Assembly: GCA_035314425.1 (NCBI GenBank)
Contig: DATFZN010000114.1
Span: 4,232 to 68,231 of the forward strand
Origin: Candidatus Acidiferrum sp.
Lineage (GTDB): Bacteria; Acidobacteriota; Terriglobia; Acidiferrales; UBA7541
Direction of reading: 5' to 3'
DNA: 64,000 nt
Translations under genes and position numbers: made by a program
Part shown: one piece after another, positions 35,340 through 51,736 of the stretch
Layout: each line of letters opens with the position of its first letter
Position numbering within the stretch: position 1 is the first letter of the stretch
The notes under the pieces: model-generated
Database searches by the model: none
Told to the model about the DNA's origin: nothing
The model's input: the letters and a program-made list of their open reading frames with translations, nothing else

Positions 35340-35843
35340 TTAGTCGAGGGCGGCGACGGTGTCGCGTTCGCGTCGGCGGCGATGCAGGTAATGCATCGCA
35401 ATATTTAAGTAGATCTGGCCACAGGGCGTCTCAATACAAATGACCATCGCTTCGGTCTCGACATTTCCGGAGAGGCCCTGCTCACTCACATGAATTTCTG
35501 GGGGGAACACTTTGAAGCGAAAACCCGCATCATTCAGCAATGTGACAGAATTGCCGATAACCATGTTTGCGAGTTCGCAAACAGTCTCTCGGACAACTTG
35601 TTCGCTCGCGGCCACGGGTGAGCCGGCCAGCGCGCTGGCAACACTGATTGCGACCTCCGGAGCAAGATCGAGAATGACACGCCCTTCGATATCACCCTTG
35701 ATCGCAATCAGCGCGGCGATGCCTTTGCGGCGATAGGTATCCTCTTCCATCGTGAGGTCGAGGATCTTTGTCGGTGCTTGCAGAGATTCAGCGAAAACAG
35801 CATCCGCGGCGTTTATAAACGGTTGGATCAGTTCCATTCTCAT
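35340..35843 (-). CDS. cheX: CheX-type CheY-P phosphatase
   Basis: Single CheC/CheX active-site motif E-x2-N-x22-P (ELANMVIGNS...VFPP) and N-terminal ..PFINAADAVF.. as in CheX. ATGA overlap with cheY. Confidence 0.75.
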   Translation of the reverse strand: MRMELIQPFINAADAVFAESLQAPTKILDLTMEEDTYRRKGIAALIAIKGDIEGRVILDLAPEVAISVASALAGSPVAASEQVVRETVCELANMVIGNSVTLLNDAGFRFKVFPPEIHVSEQGLSGNVETEAMVICIETPCGQIYLNIAMHYLHRRRRERDTVAALD

Positions 35844-36292
35844 CGGTGGCCCTCTTCCGCGAGCGCGACCGGCCCGCTTGGTGCATTCGGGTCATCACCC
35901 AAAACGTAACGTAGAATCTCATACAAGACTTCCGGTTTCACCGGTTTCTGGACGAAATGCTTTGCGCCCTTTTGCAGAGCAGCCAGAATATTTTCCTGAT
36001 AGCCAACGGAAGACACCATGACAATGCGGGCGTTGGAATGTTGCCGAACGATGCGTTCGACGGCTTCAATGCCCTCCATTTGCGGCATGGTGATGTCCAT
36101 CAGCACGATGTCGGCTTTGGTGCGGTTGTACTCCGCAATGGCGGTGAGGCCATCGCCCGCCTCGCCAGCAACCTCGCCGCCGAAAAGCTCAATCATCTTG
36201 ATGAGATTTTTGCGAGCGAAGACGGAGTCGTCCACGACCAAGTAGCGGACGGGTTGATTGTCGCTCCGAAGTAAAGGTGCAAACTGTTGCAT
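35840..36292 (-). CDS. cheY: CheY-like single-domain response regulator
   Basis: Receiver motifs LVVDDS, DIVLMDITMP, MVSS and VQKP. Confidence 0.85.
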   Translation of the reverse strand: MQQFAPLLRSDNQPVRYLVVDDSVFARKNLIKMIELFGGEVAGEAGDGLTAIAEYNRTKADIVLMDITMPQMEGIEAVERIVRQHSNARIVMVSSVGYQENILAALQKGAKHFVQKPVKPEVLYEILRYVLGDDPNAPSGPVALAEEGHR

Positions 36293-36319
36293 AAACTTCT
36301 CCTTTGGCCCCGCACGTCG

Positions 36320-37471
36320 TCAGACGCGTGGAGTCGAAACTGGTGTCCTATCGTTCTTTTCCGCGCGATCACTTTTCTCGAGCTTTTCCTGCGCATCGGT
36401 TTTTTCTGTATTGCCGCGATCAGAAGCGAATTGAGTAATCAGAAACTGGCTGAGCCCATCAAGTGGAATAATTTTTGAGGCGTAGCCCTTATTGATCGCG
36501 GCACGGGGCATGCCTGGGACCACGCAGGTATCTTCGCTTTGCGCGATGGTTACGCCGCCAGCTGAGCGAATCGCGCCCAAACCTTCCGCGCCGTCTTCAC
36601 CCATGCCAGTCATGAGCACGCCGACGGCGGTCAAACCAAACTCTTGGGCGACGGAATGAAACAGAACGTCCACCGAGGGGCGATGGCCATTGATCGGAAG
36701 ACCATCGGAAAGAATCACCATTTCACCCCGCGGCATGCGCCGGACCATCATGTGTCGATTGCCGGGACAGATCAACACGCGGCCGGCGATCAGGAGATCG
36801 CCGGACTTCGCCTCCTGCACATCGACAGCGCAACATTCATCAAGGCGACGCGCAAACATTTCCGTGAAACCTTCGGGCATGTGCTGTACGACCACGAATG
36901 TGGCCGGAAACTCTACGGGAATTTGTGAGAGCAGATATTGCAAGGCATTGGGACCACCGGTAGAGATACCAATTGCGATTACGCGATTGGGTTGAACGGC
37001 CGGCCGGCCGCGTTTTTTGTGAAGTGGAGGAAGTTCGATCTCTGCCCGCGGAATTGCTTTTGTTCCCCCCGCCCGTTTGGCTACCTTGATTTTTTCGATG
37101 AGCTGGACTGCAACCGTTTCGAGATGACCAGTAGCGGCATCCTTTGGCTTCGGAACGAAATCGATTGCGCCAAGTGCCAGGGCTTTGAACGTGGAGTAGG
37201 CGCCTTCCTTCGAATGGGTGCTGAAAACAATTACGGGGAGCGGCGCGCTACGCATGATCATGCGCAGTGTCTCAATTCCATCCATGCGCGGCATTTCTAA
37301 ATCGAGGGTGACGACGTCGGGACGCAACTCGGCAATTTTGCGCAGAGCAAACGCGCCGTCCATTGCCGTACCCACGACCTCAACATCGGGATCGCGTTCG
37401 AGAATCAATGGAATCAACTTCCGCATGAGCGCAGAGTCGTCCACCACCAGCACTCGGACCCGTTCTCTCAT
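36320..37471 (-). CDS. cheB: Protein-glutamate methylesterase CheB (REC + methylesterase)
   Basis: REC (VLVVDDS, DVVTLDLEMP) plus catalytic GISTGGP, VVQHMP and GMGEDG. Confidence 0.95.
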   Translation of the reverse strand: MRERVRVLVVDDSALMRKLIPLILERDPDVEVVGTAMDGAFALRKIAELRPDVVTLDLEMPRMDGIETLRMIMRSAPLPVIVFSTHSKEGAYSTFKALALGAIDFVPKPKDAATGHLETVAVQLIEKIKVAKRAGGTKAIPRAEIELPPLHKKRGRPAVQPNRVIAIGISTGGPNALQYLLSQIPVEFPATFVVVQHMPEGFTEMFARRLDECCAVDVQEAKSGDLLIAGRVLICPGNRHMMVRRMPRGEMVILSDGLPINGHRPSVDVLFHSVAQEFGLTAVGVLMTGMGEDGAEGLGAIRSAGGVTIAQSEDTCVVPGMPRAAINKGYASKIIPLDGLSQFLITQFASDRGNTEKTDAQEKLEKSDRAEKNDRTPVSTPRV

Positions 37472-39561
37472 GCGATGGCTCCAAGTGGAATGGCACGAGA
37501 CAATCTCGAAAGAATTGCCGGAACGCTCAGAATCAAAACGACCGTGCCGTCGCCGAGGATCGAAGCACCACTGACGAGGTCGCTCGAGACGATTTCCCCT
37601 GGTAGAGCTTTTATGACCAATTCTTCTTCTCCAACCATGGTGTCGACCAGCAGGCCAAACCGTTTTTCAGCAATTCCAATCACAATTACAAAGCTTTTTT
37701 TCTTTAAAAGACTGCTCGGCTCGACAGAATGGATCCCTTTGATGGAGTTCAACCGGACGAGTGTCAAGATCTGGTCCCGTAGACGGAGGACTTCCCGCTG
37801 GTCGACACGCTGAATCTCTTGATCAGAGATGCGCGTGATTTCCACGACCGCGGAAAGCGGTACGGCAAATAATCGCCCGCCCACTCGAAACAAAAGAGTC
37901 TGAATGCTGGCAAGGGTCAAGGGGACGCGTAGAAGCATGGTCGTTCCCTTTTTTTTCGAGCTGGAAACGTGGACTGTACCCTTCAGCCGATCGAGAACGG
38001 TCCGGACCACGTCCATGCCAACGCCGCGGCCGGAGATTTCGGTGATTTCACTTGCGGTGCTGAAGCCGGATTCGAAGATGAGATTCAAAACGTCTGGCTC
38101 AGTTAAACGGTCGGCATCTTCTTTTTTGATCAGCCCACTGCGAACGGCCTGGGCCCGGATGAGATCGAGGTCAATCCCGCGACCATCGTCACGGACTTCA
38201 ATGACAACTTGGGTTCCTTGATGATACGCGTTCAGGTAAACAGTGCCGCGTGCGGGCTTGCCCGCGTTCAGGCGCTCCTCGGCAGGTTCGATGCCGTGGT
38301 CGACTGCGTTGCGGACGAGGTGAGTCAGTGGCTCTGCAAGAGCATCCAAAATGCTTTTGTCGAGGTCGGTATGTTCGCCTGCAACCTCGAGCGCGATATC
38401 TTTGCCGCAAAGTTTTGCGACATCTCGAACCACTCGTGGGAAGCGTCGGAACAACTGTTCGACTGGAACCATACGAATCTTCAAGACGCATTTGTGCAAT
38501 TCATCGAGAATGCGCGATTGGAAAGCCAGTGTTTCAGCCAACTTTGCGCGAACCGGATCGCGTGCGTGGTCTACATCAAATTCGGCAAGGGTCCGGTTGA
38601 GCATGGATTTGCCGATGATGAGTTCGCCGACGAGGTTCATCACGGCATCGATGCGAGAGGAATCGACGCGCAGTGAACTCTCGGCAAGTGCCGCGACAGC
38701 GGAAGAACCAGACTGACCCTTGGCTTCAATTGCCGCAGAGTCTGACCTGGTAGCGTGTTCCACAGCTTGTGCTTCCAGAATATCTCCCAAAAGCTGATGT
38801 TCGGCGCCTTCATCCTGAGCGGCATTCTCGATTCGGACATCGGAGACGATCGAGGGGATACGGCAGCGATGCGAAACGTGGTCCATGGGATGAGTACTGG
38901 CAACGGCTGCTTCGACAATGTCGACTTGGGAGGCAGCGAGGTTGTCCTCTGGGCGGAGGGCGATGACCGTGCCACAAGCGTGAAGTACATTGCGAACGAG
39001 TTGAAATGCCGCAGCTCGCATGGCGCTGTCCGGGTCGATGCGCAATGCAATGTTGTAAACGCTACTCCCGTTCAGCCGGGCTTCAGAGATCATCAGCCGT
39101 TCGTACTCGCTCCATTGAAACTCCGCAGGGACCATGCCCATTTGCCGATTGGGCTTTACACATTTTTCTGCAGGGGACTCGAGAAGCCCGTGAATCAGAA
39201 GCCGTAAGGCTGCCGGCGCTGGGGGTTCGATTTGCCGCTGGTAGCAGCTCAACATATTTTCAAAGGTGTCGACGGAAGAAAGGATAGCTTCAGCGAGTTG
39301 TACACCCTGCGACTGGCTAATCTGCAGGGTCAAGACATCCTCAAGTTCATGAGCAATTTCACTCAATTTGCTAAAGCCACATGCGGCGGAGTCACCTTTT
39401 AGAGTGTGAATTGCACGGCGCAGGCTACGCAAAAGCTCCTCATCGGCGGGATGCTTCTCGAGTCTTAAACCAGAATCATTGATGGTCTGCAGAAGTTCCG
39501 ACGCACTCTCAAAAAAGAGCGCGCGAAGCTCCGAATTCCGTTCATCGGGCAGGAAACTCAA
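37468..39561 (-). CDS. cheA: Chemotaxis histidine kinase CheA (Hpt-dimerisation-HATPase-CheW)
   Basis: Hpt AIHTLKGDSA; HLVRNAVDHGIE, DDGRGID and GRGVGMDVV; C-terminal CheW-like domain. Confidence 0.95.
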   Translation of the reverse strand: MSFLPDERNSELRALFFESASELLQTINDSGLRLEKHPADEELLRSLRRAIHTLKGDSAACGFSKLSEIAHELEDVLTLQISQSQGVQLAEAILSSVDTFENMLSCYQRQIEPPAPAALRLLIHGLLESPAEKCVKPNRQMGMVPAEFQWSEYERLMISEARLNGSSVYNIALRIDPDSAMRAAAFQLVRNVLHACGTVIALRPEDNLAASQVDIVEAAVASTHPMDHVSHRCRIPSIVSDVRIENAAQDEGAEHQLLGDILEAQAVEHATRSDSAAIEAKGQSGSSAVAALAESSLRVDSSRIDAVMNLVGELIIGKSMLNRTLAEFDVDHARDPVRAKLAETLAFQSRILDELHKCVLKIRMVPVEQLFRRFPRVVRDVAKLCGKDIALEVAGEHTDLDKSILDALAEPLTHLVRNAVDHGIEPAEERLNAGKPARGTVYLNAYHQGTQVVIEVRDDGRGIDLDLIRAQAVRSGLIKKEDADRLTEPDVLNLIFESGFSTASEITEISGRGVGMDVVRTVLDRLKGTVHVSSSKKKGTTMLLRVPLTLASIQTLLFRVGGRLFAVPLSAVVEITRISDQEIQRVDQREVLRLRDQILTLVRLNSIKGIHSVEPSSLLKKKSFVIVIGIAEKRFGLLVDTMVGEEELVIKALPGEIVSSDLVSGASILGDGTVVLILSVPAILSRLSRAIPLGAIA

Positions 39562-40463
39562 GAATTATCCTCGATTCGCTTATAGGCAGTGCCGTTATTT
39601 TCGTGAACCATCTTGAATTTCTGGGTCAATCCGAAAAGGCTCTCGGCGTGGCCGACGAATAAGTAGCCACCCGGATTCAAGCAATGCCAGAACTTTTCGA
39701 TCAAACGCTTTTGTTCTGCTTCATCGAAATAGATCATGACGTTGCGGCAAAGGATGATGTCGTTGCGGCGGGGCAAAAACTCGGTCTTGAGATTATGGAA
39801 GTCGAATTGGACCAAATCCTTGAGCTGTTTCTTTACCGCGTACCTATCGCTGGACTTTTCGAAATAGCGCAGACGAGTGGTGTAATCCACTGGTTCCATC
39901 TGAATTTCTGTATAAAGACCTTCCTGACCAGTGCGCAAGCTTGCGTAGCTGATGTCGGAGGCGACAATTTCCAGCTTCCAAGGAGGCGGAATCATCGGCT
40001 TCGGCGAAGGCATCTCGAACGGCAATGGATTCCGCAGGTAGTAGTACGCCAACGCATCGCAAATCAGAATGGCCACGGAATATGGTTCCTGGCCTGCAGA
40101 ACAACCCGCGCTCCAAACCCGCAAATTCCAGTCGCGCCGTTCTTGTTTACGGTGAAGAATTTCTTCCAAAACATTCTTTTGCAGGAGATCGAGTTGCGGA
40201 CGATTGCGAAAAAAACTGGTTTCGTTAACAGTTAAATTTTCAAGCAGAAGGGCGAGTTCGGCTCTTCCCTCGCGACTGGTCAAAAGGCGGTAATAGCTGT
40301 AAAAGGACTCGATTTGACACGCCTTCAGTCTCCGCTGCAGGCGGTCTTTCAGGAAGTGCGAGCGGCGTTCATCGAAATACATGCCGCATTCCTGATAGAC
40401 GAGGGTCTGGAGGAGTTTTAGTTCTGCTTCAGTAAGCTGAACCTGCGCAGTGATCGTTCCCAT
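39558..40463 (-). CDS. cheR: Chemotaxis methyltransferase CheR
   Basis: N-terminal helical CheR domain, ETSFFRN, and SAM-binding VWSAGCSAGQEPYS. Confidence 0.95.
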   Translation of the reverse strand: MGTITAQVQLTEAELKLLQTLVYQECGMYFDERRSHFLKDRLQRRLKACQIESFYSYYRLLTSREGRAELALLLENLTVNETSFFRNRPQLDLLQKNVLEEILHRKQERRDWNLRVWSAGCSAGQEPYSVAILICDALAYYYLRNPLPFEMPSPKPMIPPPWKLEIVASDISYASLRTGQEGLYTEIQMEPVDYTTRLRYFEKSSDRYAVKKQLKDLVQFDFHNLKTEFLPRRNDIILCRNVMIYFDEAEQKRLIEKFWHCLNPGGYLFVGHAESLFGLTQKFKMVHENNGTAYKRIEDNS

Positions 40464-40517
40464 AATGTAGGTGCGTCGAGCCTTTCGAACGGTAACATTT
40501 CCAAGATTTTTGGAAAT

Positions 40518-41003
40518 CTATGTCGGAATTGCGACCGGCTCCGCGGCCTCCTCGAGCTTCTTGAATTCCGGTTGACGCAGAAGACGCGGAATATCCAAGA
40601 TGATGACCAGCCGGCCTTTTAACTTTCCGACTCCGGTGACGTAGCTGGACTCACCCTCCGCGAAAACGGTACCCGGTGCTTCGATTTCCGAGGGTGGAAT
40701 TTTCAAAACCTCCGAAGCGGAGCTAACGATCAGGCCCAGAAGTTTATTCCCCAATTCCACAACCAGAATTCGATTTCGCTTATCGCTTTTGACATCTTTG
40801 TCGCCAAACCGCTTACGCAGATCCATAACCGGAATAATCTTCCCGCGAAGATTGATCACCCCTTCGATGGCTTCAGGTGCATTGGGCACCGAAGTAATTT
40901 CCGGGACGCGGACAATTTCCCGCACGGAAGCGATACGCACCCCGTACGTTTCATTGCCGATCCGAAATCCGACTACTTGATGGTCTTTCTCCATGGTTCG
41001 CAC
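40518..41003 (-). CDS. cheW: CheW coupling protein
   Basis: Motifs ..VVGFRIGNETYGVRIASVREIV.. and INLRGKIIPVMDLR. 161 aa. Confidence 0.9.
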   Translation of the reverse strand: MRTMEKDHQVVGFRIGNETYGVRIASVREIVRVPEITSVPNAPEAIEGVINLRGKIIPVMDLRKRFGDKDVKSDKRNRILVVELGNKLLGLIVSSASEVLKIPPSEIEAPGTVFAEGESSYVTGVGKLKGRLVIILDIPRLLRQPEFKKLEEAAEPVAIPT

Positions 41004-41009
41004 TGTTTC

Positions 41010-43019
41010 TTAGGACTGGCTCACTTCGGCGTATTCGAATTCATTTGCACCAGACTGTGAAGAGCGACGATGGCTAGGGATTGCGTCGCGACGATGGCGA
41101 ACTTGCCCGGCGCGATCGATGACAAACTGGTCCATATTGTCCAGAAGATTTCTGGAAAGCTTCAACATTTGCTCGGCGGCAGCCGAAAGCTCCGTTGAAC
41201 TGGAAGCCGATTGCTGAACGAGTTCACGCATCTTGTCCATGGCGCGGACAACGGCTTGCGCACCGGAAGCCTGCTCTTCAACCGCGGAACTGATCTCCTG
41301 GGTAATTTCGGTGAGGCGATTGGTCGCCTTGGCAATCTGCGAAGAACCCACAGACTGCTCGTTGGTGGCTGCGCCGATTTCCTGAGAAAACTTGTAGACC
41401 TCCGTAACCACATCAGAGATTTTGTGGAGTGCCGTGCCCAGGTCATTTCCAAAGCCCAAACCTTCTTCCACGATCCGCGTACTCTGTTCCATGTTTTCGA
41501 CCGCCTGACGAGCCTCGCGCTGAATGCTCTGAATCAGGTCCGCGATTTCTTTCGTTGATTGTGTGGACTTTTCCGCTAGTTTCCGAACTTCGTCGGCGAC
41601 GACGGCAAATCCGAGTCCATGTTCGCCGGCGCGGGCGGCTTCGATCGCAGCGTTCAACGCCAGAAGATTGGTTTGTTCGGCAAGGTCATCGATGACTTCA
41701 ATGATTTTTCCGATGTCATCGGCGCGGTGACCAAGAATATTGATGATTTCCGCGGAAGACTGGATGGAACGGTTAGTGCGATTCAAGCCATCGGTGGTCT
41801 TCTCCATGGTGGCAATGCCAGTGACCACCTCTTCTCTCGAACGGTTCGCGATATCCAGAAGAACTTTGGCGGTATCTGCAACGCGCTGGATCGAAGTGAC
41901 CATCTGATCGATGGAAGCCGAGGTTTCTGCAACGCTGCTAGCCTGCACCTGCGTGTTCTTCACGACGTTTTGAACGTTTACGCTCATCTCATGCATCGTG
42001 CTGGTCACTTCCTCAATGGCGGAAGAAGCTTGCACGCTGACCTTGGCCGATTCATCGGCAGCGCCGGCGACTTGGTTGGACCCGGCGGATACTTGCGAAG
42101 CGCCGTCGCGGGTGGAGCGAACAATCTGTTGGAGTCCATGCGACATGCGCGCGAACGCGTTGCCGAGCGTGTCGCGCTTGGATCGCGGAGCGACTTCGAT
42201 GGTCAAATCGCCTTCGGCAACCGCCATGGAAACGGTGGCCATTTCCTTCAGATACGCGACCATGTTGTTGAAAGTGGTGGCCAGCGCGCCGATTTCGTCG
42301 TTGCGATGGATATCAATGTTCTGGTCCAGGTCCCCGGCATCGCCAATCTCGCGGGCCACAGCAATCAAATGCTGGAGAGGTTCGGTGATGGATTTTGCCG
42401 TGCGCACTGCGGTGATGCCGATGAATATCATGGCGCAAAGTGTTCCCACGAGGATAAAGATCAAACTGACGGTGCTGGCGCGGCGGGCCGCATCCTGAGA
42501 ATCGCTGAGGGCTTTACTCATGTCCGTATTGGCCTGATCGAGAACTGTGGAAGACTTGGTGAGCCAGGAAGACGGATCTTTCTGAAGATAGAAAATCTGT
42601 AGATCAGAAACGGTGGCATCGCCAGAATCAACTTGGTGCCGCTTGGCAAGCAGAGGTTTCGCAAAATTATCTGCCCAATTGGCTTCGGTGCTCTCGACCT
42701 GAATCAGAGCAGTGCGTAGAAAGTCGTTGTTTGTCTGCGACTGGGCACGCTTGACCAAATCACTCAGTTCGGAGAATCCGCGGTTAACTTTTTCTTCGTC
42801 GCGTGGATCGCCGCTCAGTAGAAAATTATTCAGGTTCAAGCGGTTGATCATGATCTGATAACGCGCCGCTTCTGCGGTGCGCACACTCTCAAGTGTGGAT
42901 GCGGCTTCAGCACTGGCCGACCGCGCTTTCCAAATGGTGGCGAGGTCAACCATCAAGAGAATGGCGAGAATCGCCAGGATCGCCCCGAAACTTCGATATA
43001 GTCGATTTCCGATCGTCAT
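41010..43019 (-). CDS. Methyl-accepting chemotaxis protein with CHASE3-like periplasmic domain and HAMP
   Basis: Conserved hairpin [36 protein letters not shown]. Two TM segments bracket an approximately 170-aa domain with NNFLLSGDPRDEEKV (CHASE3-like). ATG 43019 is preceded by GGAGGAAG. Confidence 0.9.
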   Translation of the reverse strand: MTIGNRLYRSFGAILAILAILLMVDLATIWKARSASAEAASTLESVRTAEAARYQIMINRLNLNNFLLSGDPRDEEKVNRGFSELSDLVKRAQSQTNNDFLRTALIQVESTEANWADNFAKPLLAKRHQVDSGDATVSDLQIFYLQKDPSSWLTKSSTVLDQANTDMSKALSDSQDAARRASTVSLIFILVGTLCAMIFIGITAVRTAKSITEPLQHLIAVAREIGDAGDLDQNIDIHRNDEIGALATTFNNMVAYLKEMATVSMAVAEGDLTIEVAPRSKRDTLGNAFARMSHGLQQIVRSTRDGASQVSAGSNQVAGAADESAKVSVQASSAIEEVTSTMHEMSVNVQNVVKNTQVQASSVAETSASIDQMVTSIQRVADTAKVLLDIANRSREEVVTGIATMEKTTDGLNRTNRSIQSSAEIINILGHRADDIGKIIEVIDDLAEQTNLLALNAAIEAARAGEHGLGFAVVADEVRKLAEKSTQSTKEIADLIQSIQREARQAVENMEQSTRIVEEGLGFGNDLGTALHKISDVVTEVYKFSQEIGAATNEQSVGSSQIAKATNRLTEITQEISSAVEEQASGAQAVVRAMDKMRELVQQSASSSTELSAAAEQMLKLSRNLLDNMDQFVIDRAGQVRHRRDAIPSHRRSSQSGANEFEYAEVSQS

Positions 43020-43098
43020 TGCGTCACTTCCTCCACTCCGCCAACCGCGCTTCGAGGCCGTGCTTCGCTCATCGGCAGCGCAAAACAAACAAATCTAA

Positions 43099-43407
43099 CT
43101 ATTGACCGAAATTGAATTCGATCAGTTGCGAGGTTTCTTCAGGCGCAGCGTCAAATCGCCATTCCTTAACCGCTTCCAAGCACGGCTGAACCAGGACGGG
43201 AGAGCCGCCAACAGCGCGAACACTTTTAACGTGACCGTCCGGAGCGATCACGGCTTCCACCTTGACCTTCCCGGTAATATTCATCTTGCGAGCCAGATCC
43301 GGGTAAACGGGAGTGACTTTCGTTTTCGCCTTGCGCCTGCCTTCTTCGGCTTGCTGAGCACTGGCTAAAGATCCCGCCAAAACAAATATTGCTGCTCCCG
43401 TAACCAT
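43099..43407 (-). CDS. Small secreted TonB C-terminal-domain protein
   Basis: Signal peptide MVTGAAIFVLAGSLASAQQ, then PVYPDLARKMNITGKVKVEAVIAPDGHV..V.. (TonB_C fold). ATG 43407 is preceded by GGAGAAAG. The ORF-track start at 43524 would place the sigma-54 promoter inside the gene. Confidence 0.75.
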   Translation of the reverse strand: MVTGAAIFVLAGSLASAQQAEEGRRKAKTKVTPVYPDLARKMNITGKVKVEAVIAPDGHVKSVRAVGGSPVLVQPCLEAVKEWRFDAAPEETSQLIEFNFGQ

Positions 43408-43479
43408 TTTCTTTCTCCATCGAACACATGTCCGCACTTCGGACCTCCTGGGCGAGGGAAAGTCCCCCACCAAGGAAAA

Positions 43480-43496
43480 GGCAAGTGCAGTGCCAA
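43480..43496 (-). promoter_or_regulatory. Sigma-54 (-24/-12) promoter, near consensus
   Basis: The minus strand reads TTGGCACTGCACTTGCC (TGGCAC-N5-TTGC) with correct GG/GC spacing, about 75 nt upstream of ATG 43407. Confidence 0.7.
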
Positions 43497-43794
43497 GTTC
43501 AGGGGGTTTCTGGAGAAAGTCCAAAGAACCTCGGCGGCGGCCGCAAGCCCCTCAGAGGAATGGGGATATGCTTTCGCAAAGAACGGCGCCGGTCTTTTAT
43601 TTCATGCGCCAACGTCTCAGGTACCCGCCGAAACTACGAAATGGATCTCACGCTGAGACAATTCGCTTCAAACAGGGTTAGCCCCAGGTAACGCATCCGC
43701 CGCAGCCCAAGGATGAGTGATTGACTCAGATTGAGATTGCTCAGTAGCTTTGAAGTGTGCAGTCTTAACTTGAGACAGAGAGACCTTACCCCGT

Positions 43795-46122
43795 ATGCGT
43801 GGACGAAAGACTACAACTTCTCGCCGCAGCTCCGCGGTCCGTGGCCGGACCCATTCCGGCCAGGTTGCATCTGATTACGCACAGGAATTAATGAACCTGG
43901 CGGTTGCCGCGGCAAATTCACGGGAATTGCCAGCGTTTCTTGCTGGATTTGCCTCACGCGCGGCCGAAATGCTGGACGCCCAATGGGTCGGGGTCGGCGA
44001 GATTATTGGCAGCCGAGTTGAACTGTATTCGCCGGTGCAGGAATTCCCGGCTAGCCCGGCGGTATGGGACTGGTTGCTGCTAAATATTCCCTGCAAGCGA
44101 GATAGCCTCGAGGTAGTCACGGTTCCGGCAGGCGCCGGCCACTGCGCGTTCTTTCCGATTTATGCCAGCGACGGCGAATTGATGGGCACGCTCTGCCTGC
44201 TGCGGGCTGAACCGAAGTTTTCGGCCGCGCAGGAGCGCCTCTTGACAGCCCTGGCCAGCCATGCGGCGCTTTCCATGGAGAAGGTGCGGCGCTTTTCGCA
44301 GCTGGAGCGCTCGAAGAAGCAATGGGTCGAAGATATTGATGCGATCAGCGACTATATCGTGGTGCACGACCAAAGCTGGAAAATTGTGCGCACCAACAGG
44401 ACATTGGCGACGCATCTCGGCAGGCCACCCGCGGCACTAGTCGGCGAGCCCATGGCCAACCTCCGGAATATCGCAGAAACGGGCAGCGCGCTACCCTGCC
44501 CTTTTTGCAAGAACACCAAGCAAGCACGAGAAGAATATATCGCCACGGCGGAAGGGCGCACATTTTTGGTTTCCACTTCACGAACGCCGGGAGCGGTCGA
44601 AGAAGAAACACGCACGATTCACGTACTGAAGGACATTACCGATCGCCGGGAAGCAGAGCGCCGCTACCGGGAATTATTCGACAGCATTCAAGAAGGATTG
44701 TTTTTTGCCACGCCGGATGGACAATTCTTGGATGTGAATGATGCCATGGTTCGTATGTTAGGTTACGATTCGCGCGAAGAGTTGTTGCGCGCGGACGTTA
44801 GCCCGCACCTTTATCCCACCGTTGCGGCCAAGGATCGGTTCGTGCGCGCGATTGCCGAGCGAGGTGCGCTGCGCAATTACGAAGAGACCCTCCGCCGAAA
44901 AGACGGCAGCCTGCTGCACACCATGCAGAACATTAGCGCGGTGCGAGATGCCCAGGGAAGAGTGGTGCAAACACGGGGATTGATGCTCGATGTGACAGAA
45001 CAAAAAATGTTTCAGTCGCAACTGCAGCGAGAGCGCGACTTTAACCAGAAAATTCTGAATACCACGCAGAGCATGATTCTGGTGTTGGATACGGCGGGAT
45101 TGATCAGCTACGTGAATAAGCGGTGCTACGAAGCGGGATATAAGGAAGAAGAGCTCATCGGTCACCGGCTCGAGAATTGGATCGACTTCTCGCATCGGAT
45201 TGACTTCGAAGCCGCTTTGCAGACCACGGCACTTGGCCACCAGGTAGAAAATTTGGAATTGCGCGTCGCCCGAAGCGATGGATCGATGGGACATTTTTCG
45301 ATCAGCCTCAGCCCTATGCGCGATGAGTCGAAGCAGGTAAACAGCGTTGTCGTGGTAATGACGGACATCACCGACGCAGCTTTGCTGCAGGCAAAACTCG
45401 CCCATTCCGAAAAGATGGCAACAATTGGGCAATTGGTTTCTGGCGTGGCGCATGAAGTGAACAACCCGCTGGCGGCTATCTTAGGATTTACCGATTTGTT
45501 GCTGGAAAACCCGGAGGTGCCAGAAGCCGCGCGAGAAGATCTGCGGATTATTCTGCAGGAAACTCAGCGCACGAAAGAGATTGTCCAGGATCTTTTGAGT
45601 TTCGCGCGCCAGCGTCCGGCACAGCGCGAAGCGGTCCAAATCAACGCCATTCTCCGACAGACAATCAAGCTCCGGAGTTACGATTTTTCGAGCCACGGGG
45701 TGGAGGTGGTGGAGGAATTTGACGAGAGTATTGCTCCAACACTGGGCGACGGACAACAGCTGCAACAAGTCTTTCTCAATATATTGAACAACGCGTACGA
45801 TGCCATACAAGAGTCCGGAAATCACGGACAGATTCGCATACGGACACGCCGGACACAGGATTCGGTGGAGGTGGCCTTTATCGATAATGGCATTGGCCTT
45901 ACCGAGCCGGAACGGATCTTTGATCCATTTTTCACGACCAAGCAGGTAGGAAAAGGCACTGGCCTCGGGCTGAGCATTTGTTACGGCATTGTGCGGGCCC
46001 ACGGCGGAGAAATTCTTTGTTGGAACAACGCCCAAGATTCTGGAAGCACGTTCGTCGTGCGATTGCCGCAAACCTCCGAATCAGCATTGGCAGCTGCTGC
46101 AGCGAAAGAGGCATCGCGATGA
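43795..46122 (+). CDS. Cytoplasmic sensor histidine kinase (GAF + three PAS-like + HisKA + HATPase)
   Basis: No TM segments. H-box VAHEVNNPL, N-box NILNNAYDA and G-boxes DNGIG / KGTGLGLSICYGIV. PAS-like segments begin near residues 185, 290 and 420. Confidence 0.9.
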   Translation: MRGRKTTTSRRSSAVRGRTHSGQVASDYAQELMNLAVAAANSRELPAFLAGFASRAAEMLDAQWVGVGEIIGSRVELYSPVQEFPASPAVWDWLLLNIPCKRDSLEVVTVPAGAGHCAFFPIYASDGELMGTLCLLRAEPKFSAAQERLLTALASHAALSMEKVRRFSQLERSKKQWVEDIDAISDYIVVHDQSWKIVRTNRTLATHLGRPPAALVGEPMANLRNIAETGSALPCPFCKNTKQAREEYIATAEGRTFLVSTSRTPGAVEEETRTIHVLKDITDRREAERRYRELFDSIQEGLFFATPDGQFLDVNDAMVRMLGYDSREELLRADVSPHLYPTVAAKDRFVRAIAERGALRNYEETLRRKDGSLLHTMQNISAVRDAQGRVVQTRGLMLDVTEQKMFQSQLQRERDFNQKILNTTQSMILVLDTAGLISYVNKRCYEAGYKEEELIGHRLENWIDFSHRIDFEAALQTTALGHQVENLELRVARSDGSMGHFSISLSPMRDESKQVNSVVVVMTDITDAALLQAKLAHSEKMATIGQLVSGVAHEVNNPLAAILGFTDLLLENPEVPEAAREDLRIILQETQRTKEIVQDLLSFARQRPAQREAVQINAILRQTIKLRSYDFSSHGVEVVEEFDESIAPTLGDGQQLQQVFLNILNNAYDAIQESGNHGQIRIRTRRTQDSVEVAFIDNGIGLTEPERIFDPFFTTKQVGKGTGLGLSICYGIVRAHGGEILCWNNAQDSGSTFVVRLPQTSESALAAAAAKEASR

Positions 46123-46517
46123 GCGTTCGAACGGAGACGAAAGTCTTGGCGCCTATTCTGCTCATTGAAGATGAGGATTCTGTGCGCGCGTTTGTGCGCT
46201 CGGCGCTCGAGCGTCGTGGATATTCTGTCGTGCAGGCATCATCGGGCACGCAAGGGGTAGAGCAACTGGCCTCGGCACACTATGCCGGGGTGATTTCCGA
46301 CATTCGCATGCCCGGCAAGGTCAACGGCGCGGATATTCATCAATGGATACAAAAGAATCGACCAGAATTAGCGGAGAGAATCATTTTGATCAGTGGCGAT
46401 ACAGCGAATAGCGAAACGCAGTCATTGCTTCGTGGTAGTTCCACACCTTGCATTGAAAAACCGTTTCGTGTTCAACACTTGATTTCTATCGTGGAGAAGA
46501 CATTCGGAAAACCATGA
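46119..46517 (+). CDS. Single-domain response regulator (canonical receiver)
   Basis: Motifs ILLIEDED, VISDIRMP, LISGD and IEKPF. ATGA overlaps with both neighbouring genes. The ORF-track start at 45978 lies inside the kinase gene. Confidence 0.85.
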   Translation: MSVRTETKVLAPILLIEDEDSVRAFVRSALERRGYSVVQASSGTQGVEQLASAHYAGVISDIRMPGKVNGADIHQWIQKNRPELAERIILISGDTANSETQSLLRGSSTPCIEKPFRVQHLISIVEKTFGKP

Positions 46518-47938
46518 GCGACGACCTAAAAACCAAACTTCTGGTAGTGGACGATGAGCAGAGCATCCGTAAGCTGTGCATGACCATCGGAAACTCGTTG
46601 GGCTTTTTATGCCATGAAGCCGAGAGCGCAGAGATTGCTGCCACGCGACTAGAAACCGATCCGCCTGACCTGGTACTGACGGACTTAAAGCTCCCCAATC
46701 AGTCTGGTGTGGAATTGCTGAAACAGATTCGCACTGTTTTGCCTCGGGCCGAAATTGCCATCATGACCGGACACGGTTCGATTGAGTCTGCAGTCGATGC
46801 GATGAAACTCGGCGCATACGACTATATCGAAAAGCCCTTTCGAGTCGAGAAGTTGCGGCTCTTGCTGCAACGCATGGCCGAAAAGGTGCGCTTGGTAAAT
46901 GAAAACGCCTTCTTGCGCGAACGAGTCAACACCGAGGAAAACGTGGATGGGATTATCGGCAGTTCCTCGGCGATGCAAGATGTTCTGCGAATGATTTCGC
47001 GGTTGAAAGACACCCGGACACCCGTCCTGATTTCAGGGGAAAGCGGCACGGGAAAAGAACTGGTTGCACGCGCCATTCACTTCCGCGGAGCCATGGCCCA
47101 GACCCCGTTTGTGGCGGTGGATTGCGGTTCGTTGGTCCCCACACTGATGGAAAGCGAACTTTTTGGTTATGAGAAAGGCGCATTTACCGGTGCCACAAAA
47201 TCTAAATCCGGATTGTTCGCCTCTGCAAACGGCGGAAGCATATTCCTCGATGAAATCGGGGAAATTCCGCTGGAGATGCAGGCAAAACTCCTTCGCGTGT
47301 TGCAGGAGAAAGAGGTGCGGCCGGTTGGTAGCAACGATCGGGTCAGCATCGACGTTCGCGTGATTGCGGCAACCAATCGAGATTTGGAAGCTGCCTATCG
47401 CGACGGAACGTTTCGAAAGGACCTCTATTTCCGATTGAACGTGGTTACCGTTCATTTGCCTCCGCTGCGGGACAGGCGTTCGGATATTCCTGTCCTCGTC
47501 CATTATTTTTTGAATCGCTACGCGCCCGGCGCGCATGTACATGTAACCCCTGCGGCGATGAAGAGCCTGCTGCAATACGACTGGCCAGGCAATGTGCGTG
47601 AACTAGAGAATTGTGTCGCCCGCGCATTGACGCTCGGCGATCAAGAGGTCATCGATGTAAAGGACTTGCCACCTGCCATTCGAGCGGAACAAAGCCTCAC
47701 CCAGAGCCTGGCAGTGGAGGAGGCGAGCTCCCTTTCCACCACGGCGTTGGCGGAGATGGAAAAAATGACTATTTTGCGCGTTTTCGAGCAAGCACACGGA
47801 GACAAAGCACTGGCTGGAAAAATGTTGGGAATCAGCCGTGCCACGCTCTACAGAAAATTAAAGCGATACAATATTCCACCCCGCGGCAGCACGGAACAGA
47901 TTGAAAAAGAGGCGGAAATCCATTCGGTAGAACAATGA
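46514..47938 (+). CDS. Sigma-54-dependent transcriptional activator (NtrC family: REC + AAA+ + Fis-type HTH)
   Basis: Walker A GESGTGKE, the sigma-54 contact loop GAFTGA, and the C-terminal HTH GISRATLYRKLKRY. Confidence 0.95.
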   Translation: MSDDLKTKLLVVDDEQSIRKLCMTIGNSLGFLCHEAESAEIAATRLETDPPDLVLTDLKLPNQSGVELLKQIRTVLPRAEIAIMTGHGSIESAVDAMKLGAYDYIEKPFRVEKLRLLLQRMAEKVRLVNENAFLRERVNTEENVDGIIGSSSAMQDVLRMISRLKDTRTPVLISGESGTGKELVARAIHFRGAMAQTPFVAVDCGSLVPTLMESELFGYEKGAFTGATKSKSGLFASANGGSIFLDEIGEIPLEMQAKLLRVLQEKEVRPVGSNDRVSIDVRVIAATNRDLEAAYRDGTFRKDLYFRLNVVTVHLPPLRDRRSDIPVLVHYFLNRYAPGAHVHVTPAAMKSLLQYDWPGNVRELENCVARALTLGDQEVIDVKDLPPAIRAEQSLTQSLAVEEASSLSTTALAEMEKMTILRVFEQAHGDKALAGKMLGISRATLYRKLKRYNIPPRGSTEQIEKEAEIHSVEQ

Positions 47939-48095
47939 GCCGTCTCACGCGGTAGCGGCCGGGGATCAAAGTTTCAAATTGCAAGTGAGACACAATCGTT
48001 TCAGTGTGAGACTCAGGTCACTAATTAGGCCCGAAGGAAGTTTTTAAGCTCTTTTGTTTCTGTTACATTCCTGAAAATCAGACCAACTCAGATTT

Positions 48096-48112
48096 TGGTT
48101 CTCGGCGTGCAT
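48096..48112 (+). promoter_or_regulatory. Sigma-54-like -24/-12 element (TGGTTCTCGGCGTGCAT)
   Basis: GG (48097-98) and GC (48109-10) are at consensus spacing with T at -14. It lies 73 nt upstream of ATG 48185, which is preceded by GAGGGA. It shares the CGTGCAT -12 box with 50772..50788. Confidence 0.5.
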
Positions 48113-48184: not shown

Positions 48185-48517
48185 ATGTCGCTGATCGCCG
48201 ATGAACGCGAATGCGCAAAACAATTGGCAAAGTTTTTTCCGGACTTGCCTGCAACTCGCTTCCTGGTCCGAGTGCAATCTGCTAGGCCCGGTCGAGAGAA
48301 ACTGCAGGAATCGACGGTAGTCGAATTTGGCATGGGGCAATTCGCAATCTTCACGACATCGCTACCGCTGGAGTTTGATGAACGCATCCGATTGGTTCAG
48401 CACAGTGGGGGGAAGCCGGTGGAAGCGGAAGTGATTGCTTTGCAATATCACGAAGGAATGAAAGCAGTGGCCGTGCGGTTTGTGGAAGGCACCTGGGACT
48501 GGATAATGCAGCCGTGA
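48185..48517 (+). CDS. Hypothetical small protein (beta-rich; faint PilZ-like pattern without c-di-GMP motifs)
   Basis: Good SD. The stop overlaps the next start (GTGA). No recognisable catalytic or binding motif. Confidence 0.6.
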   Translation: MSLIADERECAKQLAKFFPDLPATRFLVRVQSARPGREKLQESTVVEFGMGQFAIFTTSLPLEFDERIRLVQHSGGKPVEAEVIALQYHEGMKAVAVRFVEGTWDWIMQP

Positions 48518-49959
48518 ACAAAATGATAACAACATTAAATTTGCAAGCACCTCAGAAGCCAGATAACTCGCGAAATGCGCAATGGGAAGAAAACCGCTCG
48601 GTTTTTCCCATTTACATCGCGCTGGCCAAGCACCTTCAAATTGAAATTCCGTTTCCGCAAAACAAGCGCGTTTTGCCGGAGAAGGCGGAACTTGAACTGT
48701 TCACTCAGGTTGATACCTGGCTAAATGCCATGGATCAACAAGTGATGGTGCATCAATTGCGCCACCTTCTTCAGATGACTACGCTGAACGCCAGCGAAAG
48801 CGGCTTGCGCGGGCTGATCATGCGACATCTGAAGAAATCCGGCAAGACTCTCGCGGATCGAGACAAGATTGATTTCCTATTGGTTCAATACTTCGCGCTC
48901 TGCGCCCCGGCTAAAATCTTTCACAAGCAAATCGAACTGGTGGACGTGGCGCAGGTCATGAAACCTGTTTTTGGTGAGGTGAGCACAGCGCCGCTGCCGT
49001 GGTGTGAGCCGCTTGAAAAAATGATTCATTCTCTGCGAACCTTCAAGAGCCTGCGCGATATTCTGAAAACCAATTTTATCGAACAAGGGCGGCGGGTAAA
49101 AGAAACCGCAGGCAATATGTTCTACGATCCGAGTGCCATGTTGGCTTTTGTGCAATTCAATTTCCTCTTGCGCCGGACACTTATCGAGTTGATGCACGCA
49201 GATTTGATCTACATCCGATCCGGGATCAATCATCTGGAAACTGCTGGTGCCAAGACCATCGATTGTCAATCCTTTGGATTGACAGCGTCTGAACCGGTTG
49301 CGAAGGTTCGCCAATATGCCGACGAATGGAAGCAGCCATTCCAGAAGGAATACACCGAACGGTCCGTGAATCAGGCTTTCGACAAGCTTCTGGCTCTGCG
49401 CGCGGACATCGAGCGCGCCGTTGAAAAGGTCTTGGGGAAGCCACTTGAGCCAGCTCCTGCGTCCACTTCAGGGGCAAAACTCGAGCCCCATTCGCCAGCA
49501 AAGGCTGCAGAGGTCAAAACGTCTCCGGCGGCAATAATGAATGAATCTGCAGAACCAGAGCTGGACTTCGAATCCTGTATGGAACAGATTTGGGAGCAGC
49601 TTATCTCCGCACCGCCCTCTCGAGGACGTTCCATGACCACTGTAAAGGTGGGAGGCGCGCGAGTGCTGATGTCTTCCTGGGAAGTGACTGCGTTTGTCAG
49701 TGAAGATGGTTCCGCGGCGGAAGATCTACGACGCGCCGTGGTTGCGCGCGCAATGGTCACCGCAGCCACGGAAAAAGCGAAGACTTCACCCACGACGGCC
49801 AATCTCGAGCGCGTACTCCCTATTGCCCGGGTCGAAGTTTCGCGCTTGCAGGAACGCGTGGAACTAGCCAAACAAGCCAAGGACACAGAAGCTGCCGTGA
49901 ATCTGGGCATCAGCACGAAGAGATTGCTGTCCGCTTTAGACGAAGCCGAGAAGCTTTGA
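48514..49959 (+). CDS. Hypothetical 481-aa soluble protein (helical N-domain, Pro/Ala/Ser linker, C-terminal coiled-coil-rich domain)
   Basis: Long uninterrupted ORF, co-directional and translationally coupled. No TM segment, signal peptide or known motif recognised. Confidence 0.7.
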   Translation: MNKMITTLNLQAPQKPDNSRNAQWEENRSVFPIYIALAKHLQIEIPFPQNKRVLPEKAELELFTQVDTWLNAMDQQVMVHQLRHLLQMTTLNASESGLRGLIMRHLKKSGKTLADRDKIDFLLVQYFALCAPAKIFHKQIELVDVAQVMKPVFGEVSTAPLPWCEPLEKMIHSLRTFKSLRDILKTNFIEQGRRVKETAGNMFYDPSAMLAFVQFNFLLRRTLIELMHADLIYIRSGINHLETAGAKTIDCQSFGLTASEPVAKVRQYADEWKQPFQKEYTERSVNQAFDKLLALRADIERAVEKVLGKPLEPAPASTSGAKLEPHSPAKAAEVKTSPAAIMNESAEPELDFESCMEQIWEQLISAPPSRGRSMTTVKVGGARVLMSSWEVTAFVSEDGSAAEDLRRAVVARAMVTAATEKAKTSPTTANLERVLPIARVEVSRLQERVELAKQAKDTEAAVNLGISTKRLLSALDEAEKL

Positions 49960-50007: not shown

Positions 50008-50691
50008 TTGCGAAACACGAGTGTCTTAATTTTGACCGACGATTCCGAGTTTGCCCGGCTGCTCAGCGCTTGTTGGCAGACAGAACGTCAATTGCCTGGC
50101 CTCTCTGTGCTCACCAGCGATTTATGGAAAGGCGGCGAGAATGTTGCCCCAGACCTGATCGTAATCGGCCCACTAAAAGAAGATAAATTCGCGAGCGTGA
50201 TGCGTTCGATCGGCTCGAACACGGCAGTTATTTTTTGCGCTACTTCCGAACACAAGGATTTTGGGCTGCTCCGCAAACGCTACCCCAGGTTACTGCACCT
50301 ACCCCTGCGTGAGGACTGGACCCAGATGATTCTCTTGCTTGCCGGTGAATCGCTAAAGCGTACGGAAGCACTCAAAATTGCGAAGCAAGCGGAACGCAAC
50401 GCCTCGCTGAGCGCCAATCAGGCGACGCTCGGCCGCTACATGATGGATATGAAACGCAATATGAACAACGCGCTGACTTCGCTGCTAGGTAACGCTGAAT
50501 TGTTGTTGCTGGAACCTGGACAACTTTCCGGGCAATCCTTGGCGCAGATAAAGACGATTCACACTATGGCCCTGCGCATCAACGAAATCGTCCAAAGATT
50601 CTCATCGCTCGCCAGTGAAATGCGGGACGCTGAGACGCCTTCTCAGAGTGAGACCGAGGAATCCATCTCGCCGCATTTTACCCCCCGATAG
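50008..50691 (+). CDS. Pseudo-receiver + HisKA/DHp-like domain with Lys in place of the phospho-His; no ATPase domain
   Basis: TTG start preceded by GGGAG. VLILTDDSEF...DLIVIGP is a receiver fold with Gly at the phospho-Asp position. LGRYMMDMKRNMNNALTSLLGNAELLLLE aligns with IGQLVSGVAHEVNNPLAAILGFTDLLLEN of the kinase at 43795, with H replaced by K. Confidence 0.7.
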   Translation: MRNTSVLILTDDSEFARLLSACWQTERQLPGLSVLTSDLWKGGENVAPDLIVIGPLKEDKFASVMRSIGSNTAVIFCATSEHKDFGLLRKRYPRLLHLPLREDWTQMILLLAGESLKRTEALKIAKQAERNASLSANQATLGRYMMDMKRNMNNALTSLLGNAELLLLEPGQLSGQSLAQIKTIHTMALRINEIVQRFSSLASEMRDAETPSQSETEESISPHFTPR

Positions 50692-50771
50692 GGCCAGACA
50701 CCTCCACGATAACTCCCCTGCTTTCAAATACTTAATAGGATTCGACAACAGTTGAGAAAGAGCCGCAAAGC

Positions 50772-50788
50772 TGGCTGTCAACGTGCAT
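50772..50788 (+). promoter_or_regulatory. Sigma-54-like -24/-12 element (TGGCTGTCAACGTGCAT)
   Basis: GG (50773-74) and GC (50785-86) are at consensus spacing, with the same CGTGCAT -12 box as 48096..48112. It lies immediately upstream of the first gene of chemosensory cluster 2. Confidence 0.5.
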
Positions 50789-50797
50789 TTTTCTACT

Positions 50798-51187
50798 ATG
50801 GAGAAGTACGCGGAGCAACTGCACGTGCCCAAAATAGTGCTGATCGTCGATGATTCACCCGCTCAGGTGAAGCTGATTCAAGGGCTTCTCGAGCCCGAAG
50901 GTTATTGCCCAGTGGGCTTGAGTGACCCAAAACGCGTGGAGGAGATGATCACCTCAGAGCGGCCGAGTGTGATTTTGCTCGATGTAGTGATGCCCGAGCG
51001 AAACGGGTTTCAGGTATGCCGGGAATTGAAAAGCAGCAACGACTTCAATTCTATCCCGGTCATCCTGGTCACCTCCAAAGACACAGCAAGCGATCGTTAC
51101 TGGGGAGAGCAGCAGGGTGCCGACGGTTACGTAACAAAACCCTTCACACGGGAAGAATTATTGCGCGCGGTTCGACGGTTTGCGTAA
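50798..51187 (+). CDS. Single-domain response regulator (PilG/PilH position)
   Basis: Motifs VLIVDDS, VILLDVVMP, LVTSK and VTKPF. The start is uncertain. The ORF-track GTG 50783 lies inside the -12 box, and ATG 50798 would be nearly leaderless. GTG 50825 has GGAG 9 nt upstream. Confidence 0.85.
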   Translation: MEKYAEQLHVPKIVLIVDDSPAQVKLIQGLLEPEGYCPVGLSDPKRVEEMITSERPSVILLDVVMPERNGFQVCRELKSSNDFNSIPVILVTSKDTASDRYWGEQQGADGYVTKPFTREELLRAVRRFA

Positions 51188-51205
51188 GAGGCCAGAGGAA
51201 ACGGA

Positions 51206-51736
51206 ATGAACGAAGACTTTCATCTTGTACCGATGCCCGCCGACGCGGAGATGGTCGATCTGCTGGAGGCCCTTGGGCCAATCGCCGAGCGCCCGCCGGA
51301 ATCGCAATATTGCGTTTTTCGCAGCGGTCGGGAACGGTTTTGCTTGCCGGTGTTAGACGTGGAGGAGGTAGTGGAATGGCCGCTGATTACACCCTTGCCA
51401 TTGTCGCCAGCCTATGTCCTGGGAATTTTCAATCTGCGTGGCGCCATCGTTCCGCTGATTGATATCGCGTTGACGGAAGGCCGTAGGACGGGATTGTTGC
51501 CAAAGCACGTGGTGGTCGCTTCGCTTCGCCCGGATGGTCATCATGAGGAAATACGGGTTGCGATCGCAGCGGACGAAGTCGTCGGAACCTACTCCGTGAA
51601 CGAAGAAGAAGATTTGTTGGAGCAAGCGCCGGAAAACGTGCCGCATTGCATTGGGATGTTGCGCCACGAAGACCGGTTGGCGCTGGTTATTGATCTTCGC
51701 CGGCTGTTGGAAGTGTACCCCGGTCCGAGTATTTAA
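51206..51736 (+). CDS. CheW-like coupling protein (PilI position)
   Basis: Motifs ..[19 protein letters not shown].. and [13 protein letters not shown]. Confidence 0.85.

Follow-up and report, generated by a model that had tools for sequence, protein, structure and literature searches.

How does an uncultured acidobacterium switch on its chemosensory genes? The question is raised by a stretch of Candidatus Acidiferrum sp. DNA (contig DATFZN010000114.1; the whole 64,000 nucleotides analysed are referred to here as the window), which encodes two chemosensory (che) operons with a histidine kinase, a receiver protein and an NtrC-type activator between them, and which has no flagellar genes within its 64 kb. 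In front of che operon 1 lie 17 bases, TTGGCACTGCACTTGCC (minus strand, 43496..43480), that read TGGCAC-N5-TTGC, the core of a sigma-54 (RpoN) promoter with its GG and GC dinucleotides canonically spaced. We conclude that these 17 bases very probably make up a genuine sigma-54 promoter, called P1 in what follows. It is likely, and we hold this with good confidence, that 43481..43495 functions as such within an activator-driven, enhancer-dependent system, and the adjoining activator probably controls P1 together with two sister promoters, P2 and P3, of the two-operon locus. A preliminary description of this DNA had proposed a sigma-54 promoter for the operon running from a TonB_C gene to cheX, with the divergently encoded activator as candidate regulator; the comparative evidence presented below supports both proposals, while the start codon chosen there is probably wrong and the claimed unusualness of such control did not stand.

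We note that the letters and spacing given in that description, TGGCAC-N5-TTGC on the minus strand at 43480-43496, are exact. P1 agrees with the sigma-54 consensus YTGGCACG-N4-TTGCW at 10 of 10 specified bases and has exactly 10 nt from GG to GC, base -11 being C and not W. It is the sole exact TGGCAC-N5-TTGC match in the window, against a chance expectation of 0.27, and with one mismatch there are 8 matches against 6.6 expected. The match alone is weak on composition, and its weight therefore comes from position, orientation and conservation. With regard to the first two, P1 lies in non-coding DNA, in a 387-nt divergent intergenic region, and points into che operon 1, facing its first gene from about 44 nt before the GTG at 43437. 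The other one-mismatch matches (7187, 14402, 15053, 23019, 28873, 35036 and 38960) were rejected as candidates, their number being that predicted by chance. The last of these, TGGCACGGTCATCGC at 38960..38974 on the minus strand within cheA, recurs in orthologues because a conserved CheA peptide is encoded there, an illustration that intragenic motif matches can be conserved for coding reasons.

The conservation of P1 was examined in orthologous loci, obtained by scanning one genome per species with the sensor half of the methyl-accepting chemotaxis protein (MCP) of operon 1. This gave 80 loci with 73-94% identity, of which two were left out as their contigs end too near the gene; the 78 informative loci belong to uncultured Ca. 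Acidoferrales, a soil and peat lineage of the Acidobacteriota. The pattern TGGCnn-N5-KTGC is present on the operon strand in 78/78 informative loci, 415-496 nt before the MCP match, and about 1 Mb of locus DNA shows only 9 further occurrences on the same strand. The consensus across loci is TGGCAY-N3-AC-KTGCCTT, and in the alignment the bases T, G, G, C and T, G, C are invariant in 79/79 sequences, the spacing of GG and GC being fixed. This invariance of the core arises partly by selection, because the pattern served as the alignment anchor. Positions that were not selected for are conserved as well, however (A in 71/79, C in 78/79, and the CTT following the GC), and the 48 columns directly upstream of P1 hold about 0.1 bit, compared to 2 bits in the core. 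Alignment with MAFFT, without use of the pattern as anchor, returns the identical block, TGGCAcc.gACGTGCCTT. As a separate matter, several loci with full synteny and with sensor regions 74-85% identical to the window (L021, L035, L038, L053, L055, L059, L061-L063, L083 and L084) come from records titled Alphaproteobacteria, Limnocylindrales, Eisenbacteria, Saccharimonadales, Verrucomicrobiia, Baltobacteraceae or Dormiibacterota; wrong binning or labelling of Acidobacteriota contigs probably accounts for these titles.

Upstream of P1 the same loci share a second sequence feature. Each of the 78 loci, which together amount to 971 kb, holds a single exact copy of the dyad TCTCA-N3-TGAGA, and in every case the copy lies 150-200 nt upstream of P1; in most of the loci the distance between this dyad (dyad A, Table 1) and the -24 element is near-fixed at 163-166 nt. 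The conserved dyads as a group sit 120-285 nt upstream of P1. When up to one mismatch is allowed, 273 of the 279 dyads found in all loci lie in this spacer or upstream of P2, and 5/5 in the window lie in its three control regions. P1 is accompanied by candidate activator sites and by a gene for an activator with a GAFTGA loop. No literature description of TCTCA-N3-TGAGA was found for any characterised activator.

The activator gene is the third of an operon that diverges from che operon 1 and also encodes a soluble histidine kinase and a single-domain response regulator. The preliminary description had placed a divergent GAFTGA-containing enhancer-binding protein (46514..47938) about 3 kb away, and domain searches confirm it: Pfam returns Response_reg (1.9e-25), Sigma54_activat (2e-69), AAA_lid_14 and HTH_8 (3.1e-11), with GAFTGA at residues 222-227 and GESGTGKE as Walker A motif. 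A receiver (REC), an AAA+ domain and a Fis-type helix-turn-helix (HTH) are the domain set of the NtrC family. It does not reach the equivalog cut-off of NCBIfam for AtoC (443 of 714 bits), NtrC (427 of 558.6) or ZraR (378 of 760), and its closest relatives in the PDB are NtrC4 and NtrC1 of Aquifex aeolicus, and also ZraR; by these comparisons it is a family member and not the orthologue of any named regulator. Among 72 orthologues the HTH is its most conserved part (95% column identity vs 78-90% in the other domains), with an invariant recognition helix, which fits the invariant dyad. The synteny of che operon, kinase, receiver and activator is found in every locus with enough DNA.

A search of the window for the dyad also hit 47998..48012 and 50640..50654, and each of these sites is followed by a further -24/-12 pair. 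P2 stands in front of three conserved genes, orfA to orfC, and lies about 90 nt past the dyad at 47998..48012; it reads TGGCGY-N3-GC-GTGCA in all 68 loci that hold both a near-full-length match to the enhancer-binding protein and orfA, and near-dyads (up to one mismatch) cluster there in the orthologues, with 69 sites in the bins -4700..-4500. P3 stands in front of che operon 2, 126 nt past the dyad at 50640..50654. For P3 the comparison used six diverged metagenome or genome loci (L087-L092), obtained via CheW2 homologues with 82-89% identity, and both the dyad and TGGCC(G/T)-N3-AC-GTGCA are kept in all six. Within the window, TGGC-N6-C-K-TGC occurs at P1 and P3 only. The dyads together with P2 and P3 would make P1 part of a small local regulon, an aspect absent from the preliminary description.

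Where would transcription from P1 begin, and what would be translated first? We infer dependence on sigma-54 from the features above and, because sigma-54 starts lie about 12 nt past the -12 GC, place the predicted start at about 43468-43470. Positions +2..+5 form a G-run that 75-79 of the 79 sequences share. A search of 43300..43900 against Rfam gave no match at E up to 1, and RNAalifold gave no consensus structure for the leader among 76 distinct sequences. A riboswitch or structured leader was rejected on these two results, and the G-run and the GGAGG block are therefore read as start region and Shine-Dalgarno sequence. In the orthologues AGGAGG is followed by GTG or ATG as start. The preliminary description had started the TonB_C gene at ATG 43407, about 75 nt past the motif, a codon also chosen by automatic gene calls (102 aa). 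The start is likely GTG 43437 instead: it follows AGGAGG, it places VRTCVRWRKK before the hydrophobic core and so yields a normal signal peptide with an RWRKK n-region, and codon 43407 encodes Ile or Leu in the closest relatives. The leader would therefore measure about 32 nt, not about 62-75 nt. A still longer frame in a mechanical list of open reading frames (ORFs), 43099..43524 with a TTG start and 141 aa, would contain P1. Gene callers pass over it on identical contigs, and in the orthologues there is an in-frame stop between P1 and the gene start in 24/78 loci, with a reading frame that varies among loci. The motif is therefore not coding, and the earlier suspicion that the N-terminal extension to TTG 43524 is spurious proved justified.

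The remainder of the 387-nt region bears on the kinase operon. A candidate sigma-70-type promoter, TTGACT-N18-TAnnnT, stands at the same place in 75/79 sequences, and only about 5 other matches occur in 1.97 M strand-positions. Dyad B overlaps its -35 element and spacer, and its inferred start is closely followed by dyad C, an arrangement that suggests autorepression of the kinase operon in the manner of NtrC at glnAp1. In E. coli, NtrC sites overlap the sigma-70-type promoter glnAp1. The -10 element of this candidate is of an unusual TAG type (TTGACT-N18-TAGnnT). Between the enhancer and P1 there is also a semi-conserved block (Table 1), which may be a site for a bending or architectural protein or an intrinsic bend; the IHF consensus WATCAANNNNTTR gave no convincing fit by eye within 43543..43572. 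A similar stretch, TAACTC...CTTAAT, is seen before P3 at about 50711..50736.

The gene list proposed earlier for operon 1 (TonB_C, MCP, CheW, CheR, CheA, CheB, CheY, CheX) agrees with Pfam throughout, and the close spacing proposed with it also holds: the genes after TonB_C span 35340..43088 on the minus strand, with gaps of at most 79 nt or 4-nt overlaps. No sigma-70 or sigma-28 promoter was found for them. By the criteria of the tool there is no sigma-70-type site in 43000..44000, and neither che control region holds a sigma-28-like site with up to 3 mismatches to TAAA-N15-GCCGATAA, a pattern whose matches across the window are at chance level (41 vs 41.5 expected). A sigma-28 (FliA) or sigma-70 (TTGACA-N17-TATAAT) promoter for che operon 1 was rejected on the lack of such a site in its control region. 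Past the cheX stop codon lies a weak terminator-like hairpin (35308..35323, minus strand), and at 34190..35131 on the plus strand a gene for a PilZ-domain protein converges on cheX. Upstream of the chemosensory region, 28317..33600 on the plus strand holds genes for methylmalonyl-CoA mutase subunits, a MeaB GTPase and a creatininase-family protein, which are unrelated to the promoter.

The make-up of operon 2 is unusual: its CheA carries two Hpt domains and, at the C-terminus, a receiver, and CheW domains occur in three of its proteins. It also encodes a receiver-DUF4388 protein (59200..60102), which resembles the PatA/PixG-type regulators of pilus-based taxis systems. The three genes behind P2 had no significant Pfam match, orfC giving a sub-threshold HisKA hit only, and no sequence relatives of orfB or orfC were found in the PDB.

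Table 1. Coordinates of the features discussed, in window positions; promoter, enhancer and start-site entries are predictions
Feature	Position	Strand	Remarks
P1 sigma-54 -24/-12 element, TGGCACTGCACTTGC	43481..43495	-	GG at 43494/43493, GC at 43482/43481; orthologue conservation
Predicted transcription start (~43468-43470) and G-run GGGG at +2..+5	43464..43470	-	placed from GC spacing
Shine-Dalgarno AGGAGG of first gene	43444..43449	-	GGAGG block kept in orthologue alignment
Secreted TonB_C-domain protein, 112 aa, revised start GTG 43437	43099..43437	-	Pfam TonB_C 1.8e-16; NCBIfam tonB_Cterm
MCP, two transmembrane segments	41010..43019/43088	-	Pfam HAMP/MCPsignal; gene calls on identical contigs
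CheW	40518..40994/41003	-	Pfam; gene calls on identical contigs
CheR	39558..40463	-	Pfam; gene calls on identical contigs
CheA	37468..39561	-	Pfam; gene calls on identical contigs
CheB	36320..37471	-	Pfam; gene calls on identical contigs
CheY	35840..36292	-	Pfam; gene calls on identical contigs
CheX	35340..35843	-	Pfam; gene calls on identical contigs
Semi-conserved block TAA..t..ct...TTG between enhancer and P1	43543..43572	-	TT at -51/-50, 1.4 bit
Half-site CTGAGAC	43614..43620	-	~36 nt promoter-proximal to dyad A; conserved TGAGAC block
Dyad A, TGTCTCAGCGTGAGAT; family consensus CGTCTCAGCnTGAGACC	43645..43660	.	candidate main enhancer; ~164 nt upstream of -24 element
Candidate sigma-70-type promoter of kinase operon: TTGACT 43721..43726, 18-nt spacer, TAGCTT 43745..43750	43721..43750	+	conservation
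Dyad B, ATCTCAATCTGAGTC, conserved as ATCTCAnTCTGAGTCAAT	43723..43737	.	weaker; orthologue comparison
Dyad C, GTCTCAAGTTAAGAC	43762..43776	.	weaker, conserved; orthologue comparison
Soluble GAF/PAS/PAS histidine kinase, without transmembrane segment	43795..46122	+	Pfam, hydropathy; nearest NCBIfam AtoS, below cut-off
Single-domain response regulator, 132 aa	46119..46517	+	gene calls, Pfam Response_reg, NCBIfam
NtrC-type enhancer-binding protein (REC, AAA+ sigma-54 interaction domain, HTH_8)	46514..47938	+	Pfam, motifs
P2 enhancer-like sites: GTCTCA 47942..47947, GTGAGAC 47985..47991, dyad GTTTCAGTGTGAGAC 47998..48012	47942..48012	.	
P2 -24/-12 element, TGGTTCTCGGCGTGC	48096..48110	+	before orfA; then GTGGGG start region as at P1
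orfA, orfB, orfC	48185..48517, 48514..49959, 50008..50691	+	downstream of P2
P3 enhancer-like sites: TGAGAC 50631..50636, dyad TTCTCAGAGTGAGAC 50640..50654	50631..50654	.	in orfC 3' end
P3 -24/-12 element, TGGCTGTCAACGTGC	50772..50786	+	~39 nt before GTG 50825, receiver gene, first of che operon 2
che operon 2	50825..60929	+	receiver, CheW, MCP, CheR, CheA, CheB, two CheW, receiver-DUF4388, receiver

Several points weigh against a sigma-54 promoter at P1 under the adjoining activator. Shuffled sequences gave at least one exact match in 25 of 100 cases (p ~0.25), so that taken by itself the window match lacks significance. At -11, where A or T is usual, 75/79 sequences have C, at -12 most orthologues carry GTGC instead of TTGC, and P2 in the window itself reads TGGT and not TGGC. 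The dyads are assigned to the adjoining activator on adjacency and co-conservation. Finally, a scan for the RpoN box in six frames of 1.18 Mb found none, a result that is uninformative because the DNA scanned was che-locus DNA only. Indirect signs in favour of an rpoN gene are the sigma-54 interaction domain of the activator and a 2011 survey in which RpoN was present in 3/3 Acidobacteria genomes (PMC3372290, Table 1).

The mechanism we propose would run as follows. Sigma-54 RNA polymerase would bind the GG (-24) and GC (-12) of P1 and wait there as a closed complex. A cytoplasmic signal would be sensed by the co-operonic PAS/GAF kinase and, presumably, the receiver Asp of the activator would then be phosphorylated. 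The activator would assemble on the TCTCA-N3-TGAGA dyads A, B and C and the half-site, reach the polymerase by DNA looping, and open P1 with the use of ATP via its GAFTGA loop. The resulting transcript, from about 43468-43470, would carry the leader of about 32 nt, the AGGAGG and the GTG at 43437, and would encode the TonB_C protein through CheX. P2, with its three genes, and P3, with operon 2, would probably be fired by the same activator, and the opening of P1, P2 and P3 by one activator would mean that both chemosensory systems and the three genes behind P2 are expressed together. Bound at dyads B and C, the activator may in addition repress the candidate sigma-70-type promoter of its own operon. 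From the gene order and the co-conserved motifs we infer the protein that binds the dyads, the route of phosphorylation and this autorepression. In the proposed model both che systems would be conditional on a cytoplasmic signal and not tied to a flagellar hierarchy.

This leads us to speculate on a wider role, in a form that we consider rather unlikely: one kinase/activator pair might be the master switch for two chemosensory machines and three conserved proteins of unknown fold, via three promoters and one enhancer motif, possibly with a CrdA-like feedback that tunes the abundance of the sensing apparatus. Were this true, the first machine under the switch would be of the CheY/CheX type, with a secreted TonB_C partner, and the second of the PATAN-receiver, CheA-REC type.

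Alternatively, the activator might mainly be an output of the chemosensory pathways, as CrdA is for Che3 of Myxococcus xanthus, with a CheA (for instance the CheA-REC of operon 2) modulating its phosphorylation and the sigma-54 promoters forming a feedback loop. This is compatible with the mechanism proposed above and best survives among the alternatives, even if we judge it quite unlikely. The layout is like that of crdS/crdA beside che3, whose first gene encodes the periplasmic CrdB (PMC3147164); the kinase and activator genes have an additional gene for a single-domain receiver between them; and the two Hpt domains and receiver of the operon 2 CheA would suit such a role. Che3 is a che cluster without CheY, however, whereas here CheY and CheX are both encoded in operon 1 and several receivers in operon 2, and the activator here has a dedicated kinase in its own operon.

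Slightly less probable again is a sigma-54 promoter at P1 that is fired by an activator encoded elsewhere, the dyads serving the autoregulation of the kinase operon or being sites of another factor. Dyads B and C lie on or just past the candidate kinase-operon promoter, and autoregulation would suffice to explain the dyads. Yet the near-fixed distance of dyad A is to the -24 element of P1 and not to the kinase promoter, the same dyads stand before P2 and P3 where a divergent promoter is absent, and the conserved block encodes no DNA-binding protein besides the activator.

It is very improbable that the P1 block is instead the operator of a dimeric protein, with the partial palindrome TGGCA-N7-TGCC as its binding site and no promoter function. 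GGCA and TGCC are indeed reverse complements within a strongly conserved block, but the halves do not covary and the candidate was rejected on that ground: 19/79 sequences have C at position 4, yet its partner stays T in all 79, and positions 5 and 11 change independently of each other. The flanks, moreover, lack symmetry, with T at both position 0 and position 16, the sigma-54 consensus is present at exact spacing and recurs at P2 and P3 with other inner bases, and activator and dyads co-occur with it. That P1 matches by chance, or belongs to the coding sequence of the 141-aa TonB_C frame that the mechanical list extends to TTG 43524, has next to no probability and is refuted by the comparative data, since the single match (0.27 expected) is conserved in 78/78 loci at one place with unconserved flanks, stops interrupt the frame in 24/78, and the long ORF is not called.

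The preferred reading, a sigma-54 promoter at P1 with the adjoining activator acting through the dyads, thus leaves a testable regulatory map for a chemosensory locus of an abundant uncultured lineage: three promoters, one enhancer motif, one activator and one kinase. Its lineage-specific sigma-54 examples (TGGC-N6-C-KTGC) could seed regulon searches in the Acidobacteriota. General knowledge of sigma-54 or of chemotaxis is left unchanged. Our literature searches found no paper on cheOp3 together with RpoN and, judged by title and abstract, no relevant paper on Acidobacteria, sigma-54 and chemotaxis; a 2025 survey of sigma-54 regulons mentions neither chemotaxis nor Acidobacteria.

How unusual is such a system? 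The preliminary description held that che operons are classically driven by sigma-28 or sigma-70, which is true of enteric bacteria; beyond these it fails for Rhodobacter sphaeroides (PMC7277832) and, by prediction, for Geobacter (PMC2577667). In R. sphaeroides, FleQ and sigma-54-2 activate cheA4, cheA3, cheW4, cheR3, cheB2, cheY6 and tlpT (PMC7277832). The cheYZAB genes of Pseudomonas putida form a Class II operon with matches to sigma-54-type promoters (bioRxiv 10.1101/2021.08.29.457346). In Geobacter, sigma-54 promoters were predicted upstream of che clusters (Tran et al. 2008, PMC2577667); those predictions are PromScan scores, and cluster class showed no correlation to mode of regulation. 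Given the known Rhodobacter and predicted Geobacter cases, sigma-54 control of che genes is therefore less unusual than was claimed.

Each of the known systems matches this locus in part. As in NtrBC/glnAp2 and systems of the AtoSC/ZraSR type, there is a GG-N10-GC core, several dyads 100-300 bp upstream, and a REC-AAA+(GAFTGA)-HTH_8 activator with its kinase in the operon, and the likeness to NtrBC/glnAp2 extends to candidate activator sites that overlap a sigma-70-type promoter; the targets here are chemosensory operons, however, the host is an uncultured member of the Acidobacteriota, and the activator stays below the equivalog cut-offs. With the cheOp3-type genes of R. sphaeroides it shares a complete chemosensory set transcribed (here by prediction) from a sigma-54 promoter with an enhancer-binding protein, but there the flagellar master regulator FleQ acts on genes inside a flagellar locus, whereas here a local kinase/activator pair lies between two che operons. 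Major che clusters of Geobacter, a bacterium with several chemosensory systems, likewise have -24/-12 elements found in silico and starts predicted to lie 16-50 nt ahead of the first start codon; here the element is in addition conserved across 78 species-level genomes and paired with a candidate enhancer and activator. Che3 of M. xanthus with CrdS/CrdA also has a kinase and an NtrC-like activator beside a che cluster whose first gene encodes a periplasmic protein (PMC3147164), but that cluster is without CheY and has CrdA as its output, with CrdA targets unknown in that paper, whereas here CheY and CheX are present and candidate sites stand before the che operons. Regulation of this locus by sigma-54 is well supported but ordinary in kind; the locus stands apart by its lineage, by a dedicated two-component activator encoded locally, by its enhancer motif and by three promoters laid out over two che operons.

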